From positions 32,001 through 96,000 of the forward strand of contig JBMNIH010000008.1 of the NCBI GenBank assembly GCA_050950825.1: a DNA stretch of 64,000 nucleotides, given 5' to 3'. The notes below the pieces were generated by a model that was not told the DNA's origin, did not search any database, and saw only the letters and a list, made by a program, of their open reading frames with translations. This document shows, piece by piece, positions 3,743-28,739 of this stretch (its first letter is position 1; each line of letters opens with the position of its first letter). Source of the stretch: Clostridia bacterium (GTDB taxonomy: Bacteria; Bacillota; Clostridia; JAAYHZ01). Made by a program: the position numbers and the translations under genes.

Positions 3743-5155
3743 TCAGTCGCCCATATCCAAGCCGAAAAAGCTTTTGGCGTTGTCGTAGCAAATGCCTTTA
3801 ATAATTTTCGCAAGCATTTCTTCGTCCATGGGATATTCTCCGGCTTCCACCCATTCGCCGATGAGATTGCATAAAACTCGGCGGAAATATTCATGCCGTG
3901 CATAGGAGAGAAAGCTTCTCGAATCGGTCAGCATGCCTAAAAAATTGCTTAACAGGCCTACGTTGGCAAGGGTCTTCATTTGGTTTTCAATCCCGTCCCT
4001 TTGGTCGTTGTACCACCAAGCGGCGCCGTATTGGACTTTACCGAGGATCCCTTCTCCCGGGAAATTGCCGGCCATGGTGGCAAACATATAGTTGTCTTTG
4101 GGATTCAGATTGTACAAAATGGTTTTCGGCAAAGAGCCTGTCGAATCCAATTTATCGAAAAATTTCGCCATATTCAAAGCCATGGATTTATCCGACATGG
4201 AATCAAAGCCCATATCGGGACCAAAGGTTCGATACACGCGGGAGTTTAAGTTTCTTATGACTCCCAAATGCAGCTGCATGGTCCAGCCTCTTTGGGCGTA
4301 TAATTTGCCGTAGAAGGTCAGCATGAAGAATTTATATGCGTCCGCTTCTTCTTTGGTAACGGGAGATCCGGATACCGCTTTTTCAAAGACCGTCTTTGCC
4401 GTTTCAAAGCAGGAGTCGGTATAGGGGATGTACTCCATGGAGCAGTCGGCAATTCGGCATCCCGCTTCGTGGAAATAGTCTACGCGGGATTCCAAGGTTT
4501 CCAAAAAGTCGTAAAACATTTGAACCTTTCTTCGTCTCATGTTTTGAAGCTTTTCAAACCAAGGCAAAAATGCCGGTTGGTCGATCAATACGCTTGCTTC
4601 CGGTCGAAACGTGGGATACACCTTCGTTTCGAAATCCCCTTCCTCCCGAAGCATTTTGTGGTATCTTAAATCGTCCACCGGATCGTCGGTGGTGCATATG
4701 AGCACAACGTTGGATTTTCGAATTAATCCCCGAGCGGAAAATTCCTTCTCCTGCAGCGCTTTATTGGCCTTTTCCCAAATGGCATCGGCGTTTTTCGGAT
4801 TTAAAACCATGTCGATACCGAAAAACCGCTTCAGCTCCAAATGGGTCCAGTGGTACAAGGGGTTCCCGATCATCTTCGGCACGGTTTCCGCCCATGCCAA
4901 AAATTTCTCGTAGTCTCCCCCGTCTCCGGTCACGTATTTTTCCGGGATACCGTTGCTCCGTAAAAGCCTCCATTTGTAGTGATCTCCGTAAAGCCATGCC
5001 TCCGTAATGTTTTTAAAACGCTTGTCCGTATAGATTTCTTCAGGACTCAAATGGCAATGGTAATCGTATATAGGCATATTTTTGGCATAGGTATCGTACA
5101 GCCATTGCCCGGTTTTGTTGTTTATTAAAAAGTCTTCTCCCAAAAATTCTTTCAT
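3743..5155 (-). CDS. uxaC: Glucuronate (uronate) isomerase
   Basis: DYHCHL, WLYGDHYKWR, GNPLYHWTHLEL, CTTDDP, GAAWWYND, GMLTDSRSFLSYARHEYFRR. ATG at 5155 preferred as start. Confidence 0.96.
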   Translation of the reverse strand: MKEFLGEDFLINNKTGQWLYDTYAKNMPIYDYHCHLSPEEIYTDKRFKNITEAWLYGDHYKWRLLRSNGIPEKYVTGDGGDYEKFLAWAETVPKMIGNPLYHWTHLELKRFFGIDMVLNPKNADAIWEKANKALQEKEFSARGLIRKSNVVLICTTDDPVDDLRYHKMLREEGDFETKVYPTFRPEASVLIDQPAFLPWFEKLQNMRRRKVQMFYDFLETLESRVDYFHEAGCRIADCSMEYIPYTDSCFETAKTVFEKAVSGSPVTKEEADAYKFFMLTFYGKLYAQRGWTMQLHLGVIRNLNSRVYRTFGPDMGFDSMSDKSMALNMAKFFDKLDSTGSLPKTILYNLNPKDNYMFATMAGNFPGEGILGKVQYGAAWWYNDQRDGIENQMKTLANVGLLSNFLGMLTDSRSFLSYARHEYFRRVLCNLIGEWVEAGEYPMDEEMLAKIIKGICYDNAKSFFGLDMGD

Positions 5156-19988: not shown

Positions 19989-20040
19989 GGTTTACCCCAA
20001 TATCATTCTACGGTCTAAATATATGACCGAGGATATCGGG

Positions 20041-20886
20041 TTATTCCTTATACAGGAGGTTGGAAAGCTCCGCAAACCGGTCCGCATCCAAATTTTCGCC
20101 TCGGATGTCCGGTCTTAATCCCATGGATTCGACGGCTTTTTGAATGTCTTCTTTTTCAAGATGTAAACCCGGGTAATTGTACAGAGCATTGATAATGTTC
20201 TTTCTTCTTTGGTTGAAAGCACCTCGCACGATTTGAAAAAAGAAATCCTTGTTCTTTACATAATACGCCGGAGCGGATCTTTTTTTAAATTCCAAAAAGG
20301 CGGAATGCACATTGGGCTGGGGCGAAAAGCAATGAGGAGGAACGGATACCACGGGCCGAACTTGGCAATAGTGGTTTACCGCTACCGTTAAGGCACCGTA
20401 ATCCTTGGTGGAGGGCTTGGCCATAATGCGGTCCGCCACTTCCTTTTGCATCATGAAATACATGGAGTCAAAATCAAAGTCGGACTCCAAAAACTTCATG
20501 ATGATGGGGGTGGTGATATAGTAGGGAAGGTTTCCCGTAACCTTTATTTTGTACCCTTGCTCGTAACCGGGTAAAGGATCCTCGAAATTAAATTTTAAAA
20601 CGTCAAAATTCCCCGCATAGAATCCGGGGAAGCTGCCGAAGCGCTCAAGAATAATTTGATGAAGTCTTTTGTCGATTTCGATACAGTAAAGAACGGCGCT
20701 TTTTCCTACAAGCCGTTCCGTCAGGCTCCCCAGCCCGGGACCGATCTCGATAATGTAGTCCCCGGGCTTCGGAGAAATGGCCCGGGCTAATTTCTCGATA
20801 ATATTTTCGTCAATTAAGAAGTTTTGTCCTAAGCTTTTAATCGGTGAAACGTTGTATTTTTTCATCAAACCGATGATTCGGTTCAT
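20041..20886 (-). CDS. rsmA: 16S rRNA dimethyladenosine transferase KsgA
   Basis: KSLGQNFL, EIGPGLG, GNLPYYITTP, MMQKEVADR, F.QRRK. Confidence 0.96.
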   Translation of the reverse strand: MNRIIGLMKKYNVSPIKSLGQNFLIDENIIEKLARAISPKPGDYIIEIGPGLGSLTERLVGKSAVLYCIEIDKRLHQIILERFGSFPGFYAGNFDVLKFNFEDPLPGYEQGYKIKVTGNLPYYITTPIIMKFLESDFDFDSMYFMMQKEVADRIMAKPSTKDYGALTVAVNHYCQVRPVVSVPPHCFSPQPNVHSAFLEFKKRSAPAYYVKNKDFFFQIVRGAFNQRRKNIINALYNYPGLHLEKEDIQKAVESMGLRPDIRGENLDADRFAELSNLLYKE

Positions 20887-20902
20887 AAAGCCCTCTCTTT
20901 TT

Positions 20903-21961
20903 TTATTCCGTGGGATCTTGGAGAATATAGACGCGAACGTCTCGGATGCCCCAACGGACCGCTTCCGTTTTGTCTTCCATGTACAAGTCGATCCTGTACC
21001 CCTTAACGCCGGTTCCGATGTCCGCTGCCAACGAAAATCCGTAATTGCCGCCTTTTCCTACCGTTTCCACGTATACCTTCGTTCCCAAAGGAATGACGGA
21101 AGGATCCACGGCGATAACGCCTCTTCTTACCGGCACGCCGGAATAGGTGATACCGAAAGCAGGATGATCGCTTGTTTTACCGCATTCTTCATATGCCGTG
21201 GTATAGGCCGTGGCTTTCATATTATACACTTTGCTGTAGGTGAATGTTTCTCCCGTGGAAGTTTTGTATTGAAGCAGCGTTCCGTATTCTTCAACTCTCG
21301 GAACGGCTTTTTGAATTTCTTTTTGGTAGGTTAGCGTCTTCGAAGCAATGTTGCCGTTTTCCATGACGATGTGATACGTATTGGAAATGATTCCGGGCCG
21401 GCCCTCTTGAAGTACCTTTTTATCCGTTGCCAGCATCCGATTGTTTTCTACAAGCTTGGTTTCGTAAGGAATGTATTCGATTTCCGTTGATTTCATCTCG
21501 GAAACTCTTAATATTTTGATTTCCAATCCGTCAACAAGGCGCGTGTCTCCCCGCATCCCGACAATCCTGTCTTTTTCGCTTAAGACAATGCTTAACTGAT
21601 CCAGAACTTCTTGAATCGTACCTTTCGTAGTTAAAACGGGGATTTTCTCTCCGTCACACTCGACGGTAACGCGCACCGCCTTCTTGACAACAATTTCATT
21701 GGCCTCAAAGTCCACAAGCCTGTAATCAAAGCTTGGGGTTACCGAGTCCTCCGGTCCTACCGAGATTTTCTGCTCCTCTAAGAATTGACCTACCGTATCG
21801 GCGGCGGTAATCAGGGTTTTCGATGTGTTTCCTACGGTAATTGTTACGGTTTTTTCATCGTTAAATGCGGAACCCGGCAAAATTAATAAGCCGGCGGATA
21901 AAAGAATTACGAGTATATATAAAATGCTTTTTATTTTTCGTCCTTTTTTATTCAAGAGCAT
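20903..21961 (-). CDS. yabE: YabE-like cell wall protein (DUF348 repeats, G5 and 3D domains)
   Basis: N-terminal TM helix, G5-like segment, ATAY...AVDPSVIPLGT...AADIG...IDLY. Confidence 0.85.
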   Translation of the reverse strand: MLLNKKGRKIKSILYILVILLSAGLLILPGSAFNDEKTVTITVGNTSKTLITAADTVGQFLEEQKISVGPEDSVTPSFDYRLVDFEANEIVVKKAVRVTVECDGEKIPVLTTKGTIQEVLDQLSIVLSEKDRIVGMRGDTRLVDGLEIKILRVSEMKSTEIEYIPYETKLVENNRMLATDKKVLQEGRPGIISNTYHIVMENGNIASKTLTYQKEIQKAVPRVEEYGTLLQYKTSTGETFTYSKVYNMKATAYTTAYEECGKTSDHPAFGITYSGVPVRRGVIAVDPSVIPLGTKVYVETVGKGGNYGFSLAADIGTGVKGYRIDLYMEDKTEAVRWGIRDVRVYILQDPTE

Positions 21962-22111
21962 TGGATTGCCTCCTTAAGCTTTTTGGACTGAAGCGATTTT
22001 ATTTTATCTTATTGCGTTTGTCAATAAAATAGCACAAAATTTTCCATTTTTCATGGTAAATTAATCATCCTGATATAAAATCGTAACGAATTTTTATTAT
22101 TTCTCTCTCTA

Positions 22112-22849
22112 TTATGACTCCGAAATGATGTATTTATAGAAAGTCATCTGATAAATGAACCAATTTTGAGTAATTTCATTGAACTTAAAAACGATGACGG
22201 CACGATTCGGTCCTTCATAGATATTGATATTGCTTGTATCGGGTTCCTCAACGGTTTTGTACTTTGTAACGTTCATGATAGCGGTGAAGGCAATCTCTTG
22301 GTTGGAAATGCGGTTGATATCGCTTAGATTTATTTCCGTCGACTTTAAGTCGATTCTTTCTACGTTGGCAAATTGGGATTTGAATTTATCCAAATTGATA
22401 ATTTGCTTGGTATCAAAAGCATCCCTCAGATTTTGGAGCTCGTAGGCTCGTGTATATTCTTTTTGATTGATGCTGGTTACCCAAGCGTCGAGAATATCCG
22501 TAAACATTTGCGTGTTCATGATTTTCTTTAAGAAACCGATAACAATGTCACGATCTTCGATCTTGGAATTGGCATTTTCCAACTCTTTATTTAAGCTGCT
22601 GATGGTATTTTCGTAATTGTTGATGCGGACGGTTTGGCGGGTAATGGTGCTGACATGTTCGGAATTTTCGTTTCTAAGCTCTAAGTTTTCATTTTGCAAA
22701 GATTCAATATTTAAATTGACGCTTTCTTTGTACATCAACAGAGCGTTGATTTCATTTTCCTTGTTGATGTTATCCCATAAAAGGTAATTAAGCGCAACAA
22801 GTAAAGTCATTATACATATGGCGGTTATAGCTAAAATGAACTTCTTCAT
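22112..22849 (-). CDS. Hypothetical membrane-anchored coiled-coil protein
   Basis: AT-rich 245-aa ORF with N-terminal hydrophobic helix and GAGG RBS. Confidence 0.7.
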   Translation of the reverse strand: MKKFILAITAICIMTLLVALNYLLWDNINKENEINALLMYKESVNLNIESLQNENLELRNENSEHVSTITRQTVRINNYENTISSLNKELENANSKIEDRDIVIGFLKKIMNTQMFTDILDAWVTSINQKEYTRAYELQNLRDAFDTKQIINLDKFKSQFANVERIDLKSTEINLSDINRISNQEIAFTAIMNVTKYKTVEEPDTSNINIYEGPNRAVIVFKFNEITQNWFIYQMTFYKYIISES

Positions 22850-22909
22850 TACAAAAACCTCAATAACTGCGGATTATGTATATACCGCAATTAATTTCTG
22901 TCTTTCATT

Positions 22910-22938
22910 ATTATATCATTATCACCTACCGTAGTCAA
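22910..22938 (-). promoter_or_regulatory. Hybrid sigma-A promoter (IS-derived -35 plus host extended -10)
   Basis: Minus strand reads TTGACT (IS256 end, 22938-22933), 17 bp spacer ending in TGA, TATAAT (22915-22910). Confidence 0.7.
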
Positions 22939-23003
22939 GTCCAAATTAGTGTGTAAATTACCTCGGCATTTTAAATGTAGCAATCAGCCTATGGTCGCAA
23001 GCG

Positions 23004-23164
23004 TTTATGCCGCGAAAGCTGTTGACAATGAGTTACATGGCATGTTAGGCTGATAGCCGGGCATCATCCACCTTCTATGAAGCCCATCCCTGTTACTGTG
23101 GGGGATGGCCCGATGCCGGAAAACATGCCATGAGAGGCTCGTTGTCAACAGACCGTGGAATAAA
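23004..23164 (+). ncRNA. Candidate structured RNA inside IS256 (copy 1)
   Basis: Nested stems TTTATGCCGCG/CGTGGAATAAA, CTGTTGACAATGAG/CTCGTTGTCAACAG, ATGGCATGTT/AACATGCCAT, GGCATC/GATGCC. Homologous to 24697-24860. Transcription not shown. Confidence 0.6.
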
Positions 23165-23171
23165 TGCGATC

Positions 23172-24383
23172 TTAGGCAGCAGTACCGGACTTCGAATCGT
23201 TCTCTTTCCGCATCTGGTAATACAACTGCATATTGAAATATTTGTGTCCTGTTTGCCACTTTTCATGCTGTTCCATTAATAAAGCACCCATAAGCCGTAT
23301 GGCTGATGATGCATTGGGAAAGATTCGAATAACCCGTTCACGACGACGAATTTCCTGGTTGAGTCTTTCCACACTATTTGTAGTACGAAGCCGTTTTCGA
23401 TACCTTAAGGGCAGGGCCAGAACAGCAGTGATATCGTCAAATGCCTCGTCCAGAATAGCCGTGGCTTTCGGCGCCTTGGCTTCATAATTTTGGATTATCC
23501 CATCTCTGATGTTACGAGCACTCTCAAGGTCAACGGCCTCATAAAGCCGGCGTAGCTCTTCTTTAATTTCAGGTTGCAGCGCCTTCGGTGTATGATCCAA
23601 AATGTTCTTGGAAAAGTGTGTTTGACAGCGTTGCCAACCAGCGCCTTGAAAGTGCCTTCTAACAGCTTTGACCAACCCTTTATGGTCGTCAGAGGTAACC
23701 AAATCAACATTCTTTAGCCCTCTTTCTTTAAGAGAGGAAAAGAATTCACCCCAGCTGCTTTCGGATTCACTGTTGGCTAATTGAAACCCTATGATTTCGC
23801 GATAGCCTTCCTCATTCACTGCAGTGGCTATCAACAAACCACTTGATTGTACGCGACCATTTTCCCGCACATTTACAAAGATGGCATCCACTATGAGAAA
23901 GGGATAGTGGCACTGCAGAGGACGAGTTCTAAAAGCCTCCACGATGGGATCTAACTTCTTGCAAAGATCTGAGACAGTGGATCTTGAGAACTTCTTCCCG
24001 CATAGTTCCTCGGTTATTAATTCCACTTTTCGAGTGGAAACACCATTGACTACCATCTCCATCATTGCCAACACCAATGCTTGTTCACTGCGCTGATATC
24101 GGGCAAATAACTCTGTGGAGAACTGCCCGTTGCGGTGTCTGGGAATGCGCAGGGTAAGTGTACCTACTCGAGTAGTTAACTGTCTATCTCGATATCCATT
24201 GCGGTATGCGGTTCTTTCTTCGGATCGCTCGTAGGGGTCGGCCTTCAATTGCTCTGAAGACTGGGCTAAAAGAACCTGGTTAAATATTTCTTCCAATAAT
24301 TTGGCAAACGCTTCATCCTTGCCATTTGATAAAAATAATCCGTGCAAAAGTTCTCCGCTTATAGTAATATTAAATTGAGTCAT
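23172..24383 (-). CDS. IS256-family (Mutator-type) DDE transposase
   Basis: RNGYR, GVSTR, LIVDA, VTSDDHKGL, QRCQTHF (CxxH), TTNSVERLNQEIRRR. Confidence 0.96.
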   Translation of the reverse strand: MTQFNITISGELLHGLFLSNGKDEAFAKLLEEIFNQVLLAQSSEQLKADPYERSEERTAYRNGYRDRQLTTRVGTLTLRIPRHRNGQFSTELFARYQRSEQALVLAMMEMVVNGVSTRKVELITEELCGKKFSRSTVSDLCKKLDPIVEAFRTRPLQCHYPFLIVDAIFVNVRENGRVQSSGLLIATAVNEEGYREIIGFQLANSESESSWGEFFSSLKERGLKNVDLVTSDDHKGLVKAVRRHFQGAGWQRCQTHFSKNILDHTPKALQPEIKEELRRLYEAVDLESARNIRDGIIQNYEAKAPKATAILDEAFDDITAVLALPLRYRKRLRTTNSVERLNQEIRRRERVIRIFPNASSAIRLMGALLMEQHEKWQTGHKYFNMQLYYQMRKENDSKSGTAA

Positions 24384-24696
24384 TGCTCATCCCTCCTCGG
24401 GTTTGTTTTTTAGTAATTTATATTCTAACCGAGGCATGAGCTTTGGCTCAACTTCTTTTTACACCATTATATAGACTTAATCCCTACCGTTGCAAACAAA
24501 AAAAGTATCGTGATAGCGTCAATATACATTCGGAAATAAAAAGAGAGAGTTCACCCTTATGATAAGATTAAATCTTGTCTGTATCATATATCATTTCCAT
24601 CAATTTTTCCACATTTGTTTTTTTAATTGATTATTACACATCACCCCTATTCAAGAATTCATGAAGACAATAGCAAATGCACAAGTAAAGTACTCA

Positions 24697-24860
24697 TTTA
24701 TTCCACGGTTCGCTTTACGACGAGCCTCTGCCGGCATGTTTAGTGGCCTCTGCGGCATCTTCCTACAGGGTGAAGCCGGATACGGCTTTGTGTGTTTGAT
24801 GCCAGGCAGACAAGCCTAACATGCCGTCTACTCATCGTAAAGCGACTTTCGCGGCATAAA
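24697..24860 (-). ncRNA. Candidate structured RNA inside ISLre2 (copy 2)
   Basis: On the minus strand: TTTATGCCGCG/CGTGGAATAAA, TCGCTTTACGATGAG/CTCGTCGTAAAGCGA, CGGCATGTT/AACATGCCG, GGCATC/GATGCC. Covaries with copy 1. Confidence 0.6.
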
Positions 24861-24903
24861 GCCTACCGTCACACGGTTACAAAGTCATAGCGGTTCAAGC
24901 TGC

Positions 24904-26388
24904 TTATGCGTCCCAAGCCAGTGTGGTCATATTCTTTAGCCACTTCATACTGCTCCTTTCCAAACCATGTATGTGACGTCTGGTATCTTCCGCATACGTC
25001 CATTTTGAATGTCTTCTTCTCAGATCTCTTATCAATTCTTCTTGTGCTTCACGCCTTTCCTTTTGCTTTTTTCGTTGTTTTTGATATTTTAGCAAGTCAA
25101 GAATCTTACCGCCGTTTCTTTTGTACGCTCTGAGCCTTGCCATGCGGTCGCAACCCAATTCGCTCCATCCCATTGGTCTGCTGCTCATTCTTGCCGACAA
25201 TACATGGCTTATTTGCCCTTCTATGCAATATGTCCAGCCGCTTGTTTCTTCCACTCGGGTTTTTATCCCTTGCCAATGATTTAGAAAATATCTTAACGCA
25301 TCTTCCACTTCTTGCTTCTTGTTTTCACTTTCCGTAACCTTCAGGATCTGCTCATAGATATTCTTCAATTCCTTTTTGTCCAAACGATTCAAGGCTCCCC
25401 AAATCCAGTCTTTCACCTCGTCCGCGCTATCGTAAAGATGCGCCACTGACCTGTTTATATATTTCATCATATGGTATTTATCAAGGACATATTTGCTGTT
25501 CTCCAAATATTCGCATCCTTTTTTTATCCACGAAGCTCCGTCTCCGACTACGTATATTCTCTCAAGATAGTCCGTATCGTATGTTTTTTCTATGTATTCG
25601 GCAACCTCCATCCAAAGCTTTTCGTTGCCTTTGCCACCCTCGTAAATACCGCAAAAGTATTTTTTTCCGATCAGCTTATATCTGGGATTCTTGGATGCTT
25701 CCCCCGATTCATTGATAATATCCTCGAATACACAAACAAGCTTAGGCATCAGGGTATTAATCTTATGGCCCCTCGCATCTCGCTTCAAATCGCCCTTTTC
25801 ATTCCAAAACTGTGCCGCCACATGATCTTCATCGGCTATGACATGAAGCCTTTTTATCTTCTTCTTTCCTTCCGGTTCCGGCATCGGCATGTCCGCCTCA
25901 ATCTCATGTACCAGATCCATCACGGCTTGTTTGCTAATGCCTTCTTCCGCTTTTATGCTTGCATTCTCTCCGCCTTTGCGGTAACTGCTGTCTATACTTT
26001 CTTCCAAGGCTCTCGCAGCTGCGCCTAGCGTTACCTTCTGGTGCGGTTCAAATCCGAGCACCTGATCCAAAAGATATACATACTCACCCGTTCCTTTCGC
26101 ACAATATCCGGTTCGGCAGAATTCAACCTTACCCATGACATCTACGATGGTTTTCTTTTTGTTCCTGTGCTCGACATTCCAATACTTTTTTCTCACGCTG
26201 CTTTCTCGTATATCGTTATCAGCTTTCTCGTACAAATCCGCTATAAGGCTGACCGCTAACGTTGACGTAACTTTATTAACGAGTGCAGTCAAATCATCGG
26301 CATCTTTTTTACCTGCCAGAATATCACCCATCATTTTTTCAATTTCGACTAACCCATTTTCAATAAAATGTAGTATACTTTTATACAT
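24904..26388 (-). CDS. ISLre2-family (UPF0236) transposase
   Basis: YVYLLDQ, SYRK, IADEDH, GDGASWIK, LDKYH (DxxH), IEGQISH, RM..RPMGWS..G. ATG at 26388 follows AAAGGAAGG. Confidence 0.92.
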   Translation of the reverse strand: MYKSILHFIENGLVEIEKMMGDILAGKKDADDLTALVNKVTSTLAVSLIADLYEKADNDIRESSVRKKYWNVEHRNKKKTIVDVMGKVEFCRTGYCAKGTGEYVYLLDQVLGFEPHQKVTLGAAARALEESIDSSYRKGGENASIKAEEGISKQAVMDLVHEIEADMPMPEPEGKKKIKRLHVIADEDHVAAQFWNEKGDLKRDARGHKINTLMPKLVCVFEDIINESGEASKNPRYKLIGKKYFCGIYEGGKGNEKLWMEVAEYIEKTYDTDYLERIYVVGDGASWIKKGCEYLENSKYVLDKYHMMKYINRSVAHLYDSADEVKDWIWGALNRLDKKELKNIYEQILKVTESENKKQEVEDALRYFLNHWQGIKTRVEETSGWTYCIEGQISHVLSARMSSRPMGWSELGCDRMARLRAYKRNGGKILDLLKYQKQRKKQKERREAQEELIRDLRRRHSKWTYAEDTRRHIHGLERSSMKWLKNMTTLAWDA

Positions 26389-26592
26389 AGAGGACACCTT
26401 CCTTTGTGATTTTTTGTATGGAAATTTAATCATATCACAATCGGGGTCCTCTTTCTATTTGTTATATTCTTCCATTGATTATTATCCGAAACTTACTTTA
26501 CGCTAATAAGTATCGTAAACATCAAGATGCCGTCGCCCTTTATGTTATAATAATCGTTAAGCAAGTTAAATATACGCGTTGCGGAGGTAACT

Positions 26593-27675
26593 ATGTCTCA
26601 AATGACGGGTTATGAGCGGATAAAAAACATATTGCAAAGAAAACCGGTGGACCGTATCGGCCTTTACGAGCATTTCTGGAACGATACGAAAAAAATGTGG
26701 GTTGAAGCGGGTAAGGTTGCTCCCGAAGACAATTTAAACGACCTTTTCGATTTTGATATGACCGAGTGCTGGGCTTTCAATTTCACAGCCGATTTGGACT
26801 ACGTTGATGAGATTATCGAGGAAACGGAAGATACCGTTTTAAAAAAAGACGGAAACGGCGCCATTTTAAGAAGACATAAGAAACACGATACCACTCCGGA
26901 GCACGTGGATTTTACCGTAAAAGATCGCAAAGCATGGGAAGAGCTGATCAAGCCGCGCCTTACTCCGGATGAAAGAAGAATCAACTTTACGGCATACCGC
27001 AATGCTAAAAAGAAGGCGAAGGAGCAAAACAAGTTTTTTGTCTGGTCCGGAGTCAACGTATTCGAATGCATGCATCCGGTATGCGGCCACGAGCATATGC
27101 TCGTTGGAATGGCGTGGGATCCGGATTGGGTCAAAGACATGGTGGATACCTACAGCACCTTGACGGTCAGCTTACAAGAAATCCTGTTCGAAAAAGAAGG
27201 ATTGCCGGACGGTATTTGGTATTACGAAGACATGGGCTTTAAAGAACGCCCCTTCATGTCCCCCGCCATGTACGAGGAGATCATAAAGCCGGGGCATAAA
27301 AAAACCATTGACTTTGCAAAATCGAAAAACCTTCCCGTCATTATGCACTCCTGCGGTTACGTAGAGCCCTTGATCCCGGGTATGATTGACGCCGGAATCG
27401 ACTGCTTGCAGGTAATCGAAGTGAAGGCCGGCATGGATTTGCTAAAAATTCATAAAAACTACAAGGACCGCATCTCGTTAATGGGCGGTATCGACGTAAG
27501 AAAGCTTTACACCAACGATTATCGGCAAATCGACGAGGAATTGGAAAGCAAAATTCCCATTGTAAAAGAAGGATTCGGGTATGTGCTCCACAGCGACCAC
27601 TCCATTCCCGGAACCGTATATTTCGATACATATAAATACTTCATACAAAAAGGTCTCGAGCTTGGAACCTACTAA
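26593..27675 (+). CDS. Uroporphyrinogen decarboxylase (URO-D)/MtaA-like family protein
   Basis: ERI..IL.RKPVDR, YEDMG, MSP, MHSCG, GGID, SDHSIP. GGAGG RBS. Confidence 0.85.
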   Translation: MSQMTGYERIKNILQRKPVDRIGLYEHFWNDTKKMWVEAGKVAPEDNLNDLFDFDMTECWAFNFTADLDYVDEIIEETEDTVLKKDGNGAILRRHKKHDTTPEHVDFTVKDRKAWEELIKPRLTPDERRINFTAYRNAKKKAKEQNKFFVWSGVNVFECMHPVCGHEHMLVGMAWDPDWVKDMVDTYSTLTVSLQEILFEKEGLPDGIWYYEDMGFKERPFMSPAMYEEIIKPGHKKTIDFAKSKNLPVIMHSCGYVEPLIPGMIDAGIDCLQVIEVKAGMDLLKIHKNYKDRISLMGGIDVRKLYTNDYRQIDEELESKIPIVKEGFGYVLHSDHSIPGTVYFDTYKYFIQKGLELGTY

Positions 27676-27740
27676 AAATCCATGGATAAGTCATGGTATA
27701 ATAGATATTATGAAGAACACGGAACAAGGAGGTACGATAC

Positions 27741-28739
27741 ATGAAACTGGCTATTGCAGGTTTGGATCATTTCCATATTCACGGTTTTTTGCAAGAAGCC
27801 TTGGCCATTCCGGAAACCCAATTGGTAGGACTGTACGACAGTGTCCCGGAAGTTTTAAAGCAAAACGTTGAACGGTATAAAGTAAAAGGATATGAAAATT
27901 TCGAAGAAATGCTGGAGAAATCCGGTGCCGATGTCATCGCAACCGCATGCATCAATAAAGAAAAAGCGGATATTATCTGCAAGTCCTTGGAAAGAGGGTT
28001 CCCCGTCATTGCCGACAAGCCCTTGGTAACCACTGTCGAAGAATTTTTCAGAGTGAAATACGTATATGAAAACACCAAGGACGCGAAATTGTATATGATG
28101 CTAACGGAACGCTTTAATCCCCCGGTTTACACCGCAAAGAAATACATCGACGAAGGCAAAATCGGGAAAGTCGTCAATATGATTTCCTTACGTCCCCATA
28201 AGCTGAACATTGAAACCAGACCTTCTTGGTTTTTTAACAAAGAGTTGTACGGCGGATTGATGAACGATTTGGGCGTTCACGACATGGACGTATTCCGCTG
28301 GTTCGCCGACAGCGACATCGTAAGGGTACAATCTTGCTTCCAAGGCAACAAAGGGTACCCCGAATTGACCGATTTTTCCGATCACTCCGAAGCTTCCCTT
28401 CTTTTGGCGGACAACAGCACCGCATACGTTCGCTTAGACTGGCTGACGCCGAAAGCATATCCTACCCACGGCGACTGCCGATTTATCGTGATCGGCACGG
28501 AAGGCCAACTGGAAGCCTTTACGTATGACAATAAACTGATATTCTTCAACAACGAAACGCCTCCCGTAGAAGTGCCTACGGAAAAAAGACCGTATACTTT
28601 CACGGAGGACGTGTATATGAACATCAAGGATCCTTCCCGCAAGACGGCGATTTCTCCCGATGACATATTCAAAGCCACATGGGCGGCCCTAAAAGCCCAG
28701 GAGGTTGCCGACGCGAATTTAGGAGGATTGCAGATTTAA
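27741..28739 (+). CDS. Gfo/Idh/MocA family oxidoreductase
   Basis: GLDHFH, IADKPL, YGGLMNDLGVHDMD, GTEG. Confidence 0.88.
   Translation: MKLAIAGLDHFHIHGFLQEALAIPETQLVGLYDSVPEVLKQNVERYKVKGYENFEEMLEKSGADVIATACINKEKADIICKSLERGFPVIADKPLVTTVEEFFRVKYVYENTKDAKLYMMLTERFNPPVYTAKKYIDEGKIGKVVNMISLRPHKLNIETRPSWFFNKELYGGLMNDLGVHDMDVFRWFADSDIVRVQSCFQGNKGYPELTDFSDHSEASLLLADNSTAYVRLDWLTPKAYPTHGDCRFIVIGTEGQLEAFTYDNKLIFFNNETPPVEVPTEKRPYTFTEDVYMNIKDPSRKTAISPDDIFKATWAALKAQEVADANLGGLQI

Follow-up and report, generated by a model that had tools for sequence, protein, structure and literature searches.

The single-strand origins (sso) of rolling-circle plasmids direct the synthesis of a primer RNA of about 20 nt, the motif CS-6 being its stop. 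On single-stranded DNA (ssDNA) these origins form a long imperfect hairpin, at which host RNA polymerase makes the short RNA primer that starts the complementary strand (PMC5703833, PMC4595007). The ssoA/palA type measures about 160 nt, folds when single-stranded, acts in one orientation only and is both recognised and primed by RNA polymerase, and its "recombination site B" (RSB) is common to ssoU, ssoT and ssoW (PMC5703833). RSB is given as 5'-TTATGCCGAGAAAATTT-3' and CS-6 as 5'-TAGCGT-3' (PMC4598088). In published work sso are described in plasmids and conjugative elements (PMC4595007), and an insertion sequence (IS) has been found inserted beside a plasmid sso (PMC12016507). A plasmid-type sso serving second-strand synthesis within an integrated mobile element is known from ICEBs1 (sso1) and from sso-like regions of other conjugative elements (PMC4595007); sso1 is of the pBAA1 type and not of the RSB/palA type, and conjugative elements have a documented rolling-circle and transfer stage, which the IS considered below do not. 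Here we analyse a stretch of 64,000 nt from a Clostridia bacterium (assembly GCA_050950825.1, contig JBMNIH010000008.1, positions 32,001 to 96,000), referred to as the window, in which two copies of one hairpin module lie inside two neighbouring IS of different families. Judged by motif, fold and model matches, the module is a single-strand origin of the ssoA/palA type in a variant form, and its presence in several IS families is unusual. The two copies in the window are the following.

23000 to 23168, + strand: sso copy 1, an ssoA/palA-like hairpin (core in the first-pass annotation 23004-23164; fold -83.2 kcal/mol; member of covariance model R1)
23004 to 23018, + strand: RSB-like motif TTTATGCCGCGAAAG at the 5' base of copy 1, compared with the RSB of PMC4598088
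24697 to 24860, - strand: sso copy 2, lying 185 nt from the end of its IS and 100% identical in 13 copies
24846 to 24860, - strand: RSB-like motif of copy 2 (TTTATGCCGCGAAAG on the - strand), by sequence comparison

A first-pass annotation, made from the sequence alone, had reported the same structured module downstream of the transposase stop codons of two different IS families, IS256 and ISLre2. Both copies were found at these places, next to transposase genes with PF00872 and PF06782 matches, and the pairwise alignment, the conserved blocks quoted and the arms of the paired region P2 were all as described. The position downstream of the stop codons could be refined, as each copy lies inside the borders of its IS and not merely alongside it. 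Copy 1 begins 67 nt from the end of the IS256-type element, its core ends 8 nt off the transposase stop codon and it runs antisense to the gene; copy 2 begins 43 nt past the stop codon of the ISLre2-type transposase, ends 185 nt before the end of the element and runs sense to the gene. Metagenome contigs break at 22999 and at 23168/9, which are the borders of the copy 1 module. An explanation by chance is excluded.

The 5' basal arm of the module, TTATGCCGCGAAAG, shows one mismatch to RSB in the first 13 bases (PMC4598088), and an RSB-like motif was present in 58 of 61 family members. Model R1, a covariance model built from seven IS-borne copies of this genome only, was run on classical plasmids and gave full-length matches on pT181 at 3765-3931 (40.5 bits, E 3.8e-11, all 174 model positions, with the next best match at 7.8 bits), on pC194 at 2043-2212 (34.8 bits, E 4e-9) and on pE194 at 635-800 (27.9 bits, E 4e-7). 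The pT181 match starts 3 nt past the mobV/pre stop codon and includes the RSB at 3772-3788. On pUB110, which carries ssoU, no match was obtained at E <= 0.05. The alignments of R1 with the plasmids display a common foot (UUUAUGCCG.GAAA ... UGGAAUAAA), and the GAGGCUC bulge is found in pC194 too; by these matches the module resembles experimentally defined origins in sequence as well as in structure. Module lengths range from 100 to 226 nt and agree with the imperfect palindrome of about 130-230 nt expected of ssoA/palA. A search of positions 20000-28000 against Rfam at E <= 10 yielded five matches, none on either copy and none at the gathering score, as would be expected because a DNA element falls outside Rfam curation. 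Taken by its sequence, the element is very probably an sso-class ssDNA hairpin.

The consensus structure of seven representatives comprises 56 base pairs. It starts from the basal stem P1, which is followed by an internal loop (AAAG/AC), then by P2, a bulge (AGAGG) and P3, and closes with a top that is either simple or branched. In an alignment of 61 diverse copies, 93.0% of the cells pair compared to 32-52% with the partners slid, and 42 of the 56 pairs are altered on both sides, bearing out the compensatory changes first noted between the two copies; fitting the alignment to the model biases it towards the structure, and the copies are not independent in descent, yet the margin over the slid controls is still large. 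None of 500 shuffles reached any of the five measures used. The same holds for the 23 IS-borne copies alone, aligned in the same manner and subject to the same reservations (93.1% of cells paired, both-side change in 31 of 56 pairs, 0 of 500 shuffles reaching any measure). Because compensatory change is seen among IS-borne copies alone, the fold is, as judged from the alignment, under selection while carried by an IS. The preference for one strand that had been proposed from two wobble pairs was also borne out, with 279 cells of the G-U type (G-U/U-G) versus 46 of the A-C type (A-C/C-A) and with the + strand folding 6-17 kcal/mol more stably than its complement in six out of six subfamilies. 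The wobble bias and the fold energies together indicate that one strand is the folding strand. Conservation ends at the foot of the hairpin, where three extra pairs (GCG/TGC) covary in L035 and L047, and no common promoter, terminator or duplication was found beyond the foot across more than 20 contexts compared. On the 5' arm, 33 of the 61 copies carry the box pattern TT[GT]AC[AG]-N13-15-TGnTAGGCT; as an observation only, it would suit an RNA polymerase site that is rebuilt in the stem.

Two features of the module had a different explanation at first sight and were dismissed. CGAAA and GATGAG recall a hammerhead ribozyme, but their strand order is wrong and the Rfam hammerhead models gave no match. 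A small open reading frame (ORF) starting from an ATG within the RSB differs between subfamilies in peptide length and frame, as compared by eye, and is therefore not coding.

The genome contains 29 copies of the module in six sequence subfamilies, and all of them lie inside IS256-, ISLre2- or IS3-type units, between the transposase stop codon and the terminal repeat. The carriers are as follows.

IS256-type: 10 copies, in three lineages with transposases of 403, 402 and 404 amino acids (aa)
ISLre2-type: 14 copies, 13 identical and one of a lineage with a 488-aa transposase
IS3-type (orfA HTH_Tnp_2, orfB rve): 5 copies, four identical ones of 1,889 bp (module 134 bp from their right end) and one remnant

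The module is cargo that is copied along with its IS. An ISLre2-type copy without the module at C2 187983-189581 was considered as an empty-site form and rejected, as it is cut before the stop codon and represents a deletion. A high-copy IS of the genome, with a 536-aa DDE_Tnp_1_6 transposase, is without sso (L180, C3:289400-291400; about 12 matches of 609 nt). A motif scan of the genome added only two candidate places, C4:227000 (+) and C8:8471 (-), which were missed by BLAST and in which an RSB-like motif is followed at the right spacing by a GTGGAATAAA-like motif. At C2 37920-40518 (L005, L029) an ISLre2-type copy is inserted in the RSB of the sso of an IS256-type copy, splitting this sso, and about 10 bp (window 23006-23015) are duplicated on both sides.

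Both IS in the window are complete and are separated by 29 bp. Their borders and genes, with the target-site duplications (TSDs), are listed below.

22925 to 22932: left copy of the 8-bp TSD CCTACCGT of the IS256-type insertion
22933 to 24482, - strand: IS256-family IS of 1,550 bp holding sso copy 1, borders by megablast against the other copies of the genome
23172 to 24383, - strand: IS256-type transposase gene, 403 aa, PF00872 (IS256/Mutator), E 2.9e-132
24483 to 24490: right copy of the TSD CCTACCGT, matching the left copy
24503 to 24511: 9-bp TSD AAGTATCGT of the ISLre2-type insertion, second copy at 26508-26516
24512 to 26507, - strand: ISLre2-family IS of 1,996 bp holding sso copy 2, megablast borders common to about 12 other copies
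24904 to 26433, - strand: ISLre2-type transposase gene, 509 aa, PF06782 (UPF0236, i.e. ISLre2), E 5.4e-65

The flanks of the IS256-type copies part at AGTCAAGTCC in five out of six cases, the sixth being interrupted by a nested IS. Metagenome DNA contigs of two runs (X2, X4) contain the site without either IS, position 22932 being joined to 26508 through 12 nt, TGCAAACAAAAA, exactly the sequence predicted. Both insertions are therefore recent and polymorphic. Contigs of 1,996 nt in X2 and X4 span exactly 24512-26507, the ISLre2-type unit. In contigs of run X4, position 24482 of the IS256-type unit is joined back to 22933 with spacers of 6, 5 and 2 nt, and these junctions represent either a circle or head-to-tail (tandem) copies. 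The spacers (AAAATA, GTTTT and TC) had no match among the compared flanks of the IS256-type copies of the genome; since they fit none of these flanks, the junctions are uninformative on the donor end.

Outside this genome, model matches came from 15 of the 100 further class members searched (E <= 0.001) and from 15 of 150 further genomes drawn from the phylum at large (E <= 1e-5). A pattern scan of species genomes with 19 specified bases found at least 117 stretches, and the 80 listed loci were analysed; 41 gave a full-length match on the + strand, 9 were cut by a contig end and 30 gave none, the latter probably being chance matches to the pattern. Among the matches listed, most come from rumen, gut and digester Clostridia and a few from Bacillus. 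The neighbourhoods were as follows.

Class relatives, 22 places: IS256 2, ISLre2 4, IS110 2, DDE_3 1; neither nearby 11, plus 2 with putative transposases known by a helix-turn-helix only
Phylum sample, 19 places (neighbours by blastp against a labelled protein set): IS256 3, IS3-like 2, ISLre2 1, IS110 2; serine-recombinase-like 1; neither 10
Pattern loci among the matches listed, 41 places, adjoining IS transposase: IS256 5 (one tested by Pfam, four recognised from the N-terminus), ISLre2 2, IS110 1, IS6-like 1, rve 1
The same pattern loci, other genes: large serine recombinase 8 (five of them tested by Pfam), Mob_Pre 1, tyrosine integrase 1; ordinary genes or no close recombinase ORF at 21 of 41

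Position and orientation follow the type of carrier. The sso is antisense in the IS256 types and lies 0-33 nt past the stop codon, with L183 as the sole exception; it is always sense in the ISLre2 types, and among the matches listed it is antisense in 8 of 8 serine recombinase loci, 5-16 nt past the stop codon. At L100, also among the matches listed, the module lies 25 nt after a Mob_Pre gene, which is the layout of pT181. A single-stranded stage of the carrier is given for L100 by its Mob_Pre gene and is plausible for the serine-recombinase elements; the IS256, ISLre2 and IS3 elements, on which all 29 copies of this genome reside, are not known to have one. Similarity between sso does not track the carrier family: the nearest relative of the IS3-borne copy resides in an IS6-like element (0.85), and no fewer than five dissimilar types of sso occur in ISLre2 elements. 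The module has accordingly changed carriers several times. In addition, closely matching elements were encountered elsewhere (L184 and L198 in G233, L031 in G061). A genome from another family has IS3-type proteins 100% identical to those of this genome, each IS with an sso; further matches are an ISLre2-type protein of 92% identity and an IS256-type element whose sso and first 20 transposase residues match the E07 copy of this genome. These matches point to recent horizontal spread.

IS256, IS3 and IS30 move by copy-out/paste-in, a pathway that serves most bacterial IS families. Circle-forming families include IS256, IS3 and IS110, and the figure-eight is converted to a circle by host replication, by a route that is not worked out (PMC3219604, PMC7780238, IEE preprint). 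The sso carriers belong mostly to families reported to form circles (IS256, IS3, IS110), and the residence of an sso inside IS hints at a single-stranded stage during their movement. We propose that one IS strand would be circularised to give the figure-eight intermediate and that replication from the flanking 3'-OH would peel the circularised strand off. The displaced strand would need a primer, which the IS-borne sso on it could supply by way of RNA polymerase, and the primed strand would become the double-stranded circular form used for integration. The sso of the IS3-type element is on the sense strand of the transposase, whose 3' end is the right end, and in IS2 only this end serves as donor; this copy fits the proposed model. 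Under that model the donor would be the left end in the IS256 types and the right end in the ISLre2 and IS3 types. The favoured explanation as a whole, an sso-class hairpin that would prime an IS strand, is considered moderately probable. That the sso serves the transposition of its own IS by second-strand priming is put forward tentatively and may well be wrong. We regard as rather unlikely a fuller version for the copy-out/paste-in IS of Clostridia, in which an sso is kept because the circularised IS strand is set free, if only for a time, as ssDNA and has to be primed by RNA polymerase, in which the strand and hence the end that starts transposition in each family can be told from the sso orientation, and in which IS families exchange the module as a cassette that adds to fitness.

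Several findings weigh against the favoured explanation. CS-6 (TAGCGT/A) is not conserved: an exact match lies within the module in only 2 of 61 copies, and in 6 of 61 one stands in the 5' flank, just 5' of the RSB; copy 1 has TAGCCG where TAGCGA of pT181 aligns, and the element reads as an RSB-bearing sso variant, not as textbook ssoA. A blastn search of copy 1 against 72,556 plasmids gave no match at E <= 0.01, since BLAST cannot pick up conserved stretches this short in so large a database; what ties the element to palA is therefore the motif together with the covariance model. A standard promoter scan passes over the internal TTGACA-N16-18-TGnTAGGCT, the second hexamer matching at only 3 of 6 positions, and a double-strand promoter was rejected. 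G·T in DNA is indistinguishable from G·U in RNA by sequence alone. As to the carriers, roughly every second copy found in other genomes lacks a nearby recombinase gene, and one carrier is IS630-like (DDE_3), IS630 being a cut-and-paste family. The genome also harbours a module-free IS256 lineage with a 412-aa frame (7 copies, e.g. C4:36196-37308, L181) and a module-free ISLre2 lineage with a 484-aa frame (3 copies, e.g. C2:238616-239803, L182), one copy of each having been re-scanned with filters off. Since these sister lineages do well beside the carriers, an IS can dispense with the module. Finally, we know of no free single-stranded stage documented for IS256 or IS3 transposition.

The main alternative is a true sso that is idle in transposition and was acquired by recombination with plasmids or integrative elements. 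It might persist as harmless, or an IS dropping a host-adapted sso into a rolling-circle plasmid or conjugative element might help this replicon and thus itself; such a role as passenger or vehicle appears possible, if on the doubtful side. It would account for modules of this class after Mob_Pre, after large serine recombinase genes, near a tyrosine integrase and alone, for an sso similarity that does not track the IS family, and for sister IS lineages that lack an sso and are equally successful at similar copy numbers. An IS insertion beside a plasmid sso altered the host range of the plasmid (PMC12016507). Among the explanations of the first-pass annotation was a passenger hairpin of ssDNA or RNA, mobile in its own right and passing from one IS family to another, and this is close to what the evidence shows. 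Against an idle passenger, compensatory pairing is kept among the IS-borne copies alone, all 29 copies in this genome are IS-borne with no plasmid or conjugative copy seen among them as a source, and position and orientation are fixed within the IS256 (except L183) and ISLre2 families.

The other explanation of the first-pass annotation, a novel IS-borne noncoding RNA acting as regulator, scaffold or guide with a variable apex, was not upheld given the RSB motif and the model matches to pT181, pC194 and pE194, and it is now judged very unlikely. Strand-specific wobbles would suit an RNA equally, the apex differs between IS types, and contigs from RNA libraries cover both IS and the module but carry no strand, end or level information. 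The module is nevertheless homologous to palA/ssoA, which acts as DNA; neither a promoter nor a terminator is conserved outside the hairpin, the orientation to the transposase gene varies between families, modules also occur far from any transposase gene, and nothing was found in Rfam. An RNA of the IS110 bridge or IS605 omega type was rejected since no fixed recombinase is linked to the module, which accompanies at least five transposase families, serine recombinases and a relaxase. Even less credit is given to a miniature inverted-repeat transposable element (MITE), a decaying palindromic repeat or a preferred target of IS insertion, although the module ends form an imperfect inverted repeat and solo copies exist in other genomes. 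No TSD was seen at the module borders in the 26 contexts compared, as a MITE would leave, and the decaying repeat, which the first-pass annotation had kept as its fallback, is contradicted by covariation far above the controls in the larger alignment. Since the module falls inside the borders of its IS and shows 100% identity across 13 ISLre2 copies whose flanks differ, it travels with the IS and is not a target for it.

Compared with the ssoA/palA origins of pT181, pC194 and pE194, the IS module shares the RSB at the 5' base, an imperfect hairpin of about 160 nt with a conserved base and variable top, a single functional strand, the full-length match by R1 and, at L100, the position after a pre/mob gene. 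It differs in lacking a conserved CS-6, in being carried by chromosomal IS and not by plasmids, and in the clostridial subfamily having a core of its own (GGCATGTTAGGCT, AGAGGCTC) and often a three-way top. In Frpo of the F plasmid, folded ssDNA rebuilds -35- and -10-like boxes for RNA polymerase; Frpo lies in plasmid leading regions and drives early genes. The box pattern on the 5' arm of the IS module recalls Frpo in architecture. Integron attC is a site on a folded strand as well, whose outer stem is conserved, whose spacer stays unpaired and whose inner stem covaries while the top differs from site to site. This likeness is an analogy only, and attC was rejected as an identity because the R-box consensus GTTRRRY is absent from the module ends compared and no integrase is linked to the module.

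A full-text literature search, whose coverage was without most subscription journals and ISfinder notes so that an earlier mention is possible, gave no description of an sso inside an IS. The first-pass annotation had held that a match to a described family would remove the novelty, and for the element itself, which is of a long-described kind, this is the case; its residence inside IS still appears to be new. A lagging-strand origin in natural IS256-, ISLre2- and IS3-type elements would provide a cis-acting handle that can be deleted, inverted or swapped, and from the orientation of the sso one can predict the displaced strand. Were the sso mere cargo, IS would still spread host-adapted replication origins among plasmids and integrative elements. 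The finding would be highly interesting if the sso reports a single-stranded copy-out/paste-in step and is moderately so as it stands. It also calls for caution, as strongly covarying "RNA-like" motifs in mobile DNA can be ssDNA structures that Rfam cannot flag. The wider analysis proposed with the annotation, comprising a covariance model, a search of further genomes and a tabulation of host IS and orientation, was carried out and found both solo copies and module-free IS variants.

Some further observations were made on related loci. Shorter matches were obtained at L041, L048, L194, L195, L196 and L201, covering model positions 20-157 (P2-P3 without the RSB foot); some are near ISLre2, IS3-like or IS110 genes, and they may be foot-less derivatives or an unrelated hairpin. 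At the IS110-type loci L034, L192 and L195 the module, or just the inner portion of it, is found upstream of the transposase gene at 303-328 nt from its start, and the non-coding end upstream of the transposase is the site of the bridge RNA in IS110. At 22910-22938 (- strand) of the window, an outward TTGACT at the end of the IS256-type element is followed, after a spacer of 17 nt, by TATAAT with an upstream TG in the flank. This promoter-like site matches at 11 of 12 positions, is directed at a 245-aa ORF (22112-22849, - strand) and, by its sequence, looks like an IS256-style hybrid promoter made by the insertion.

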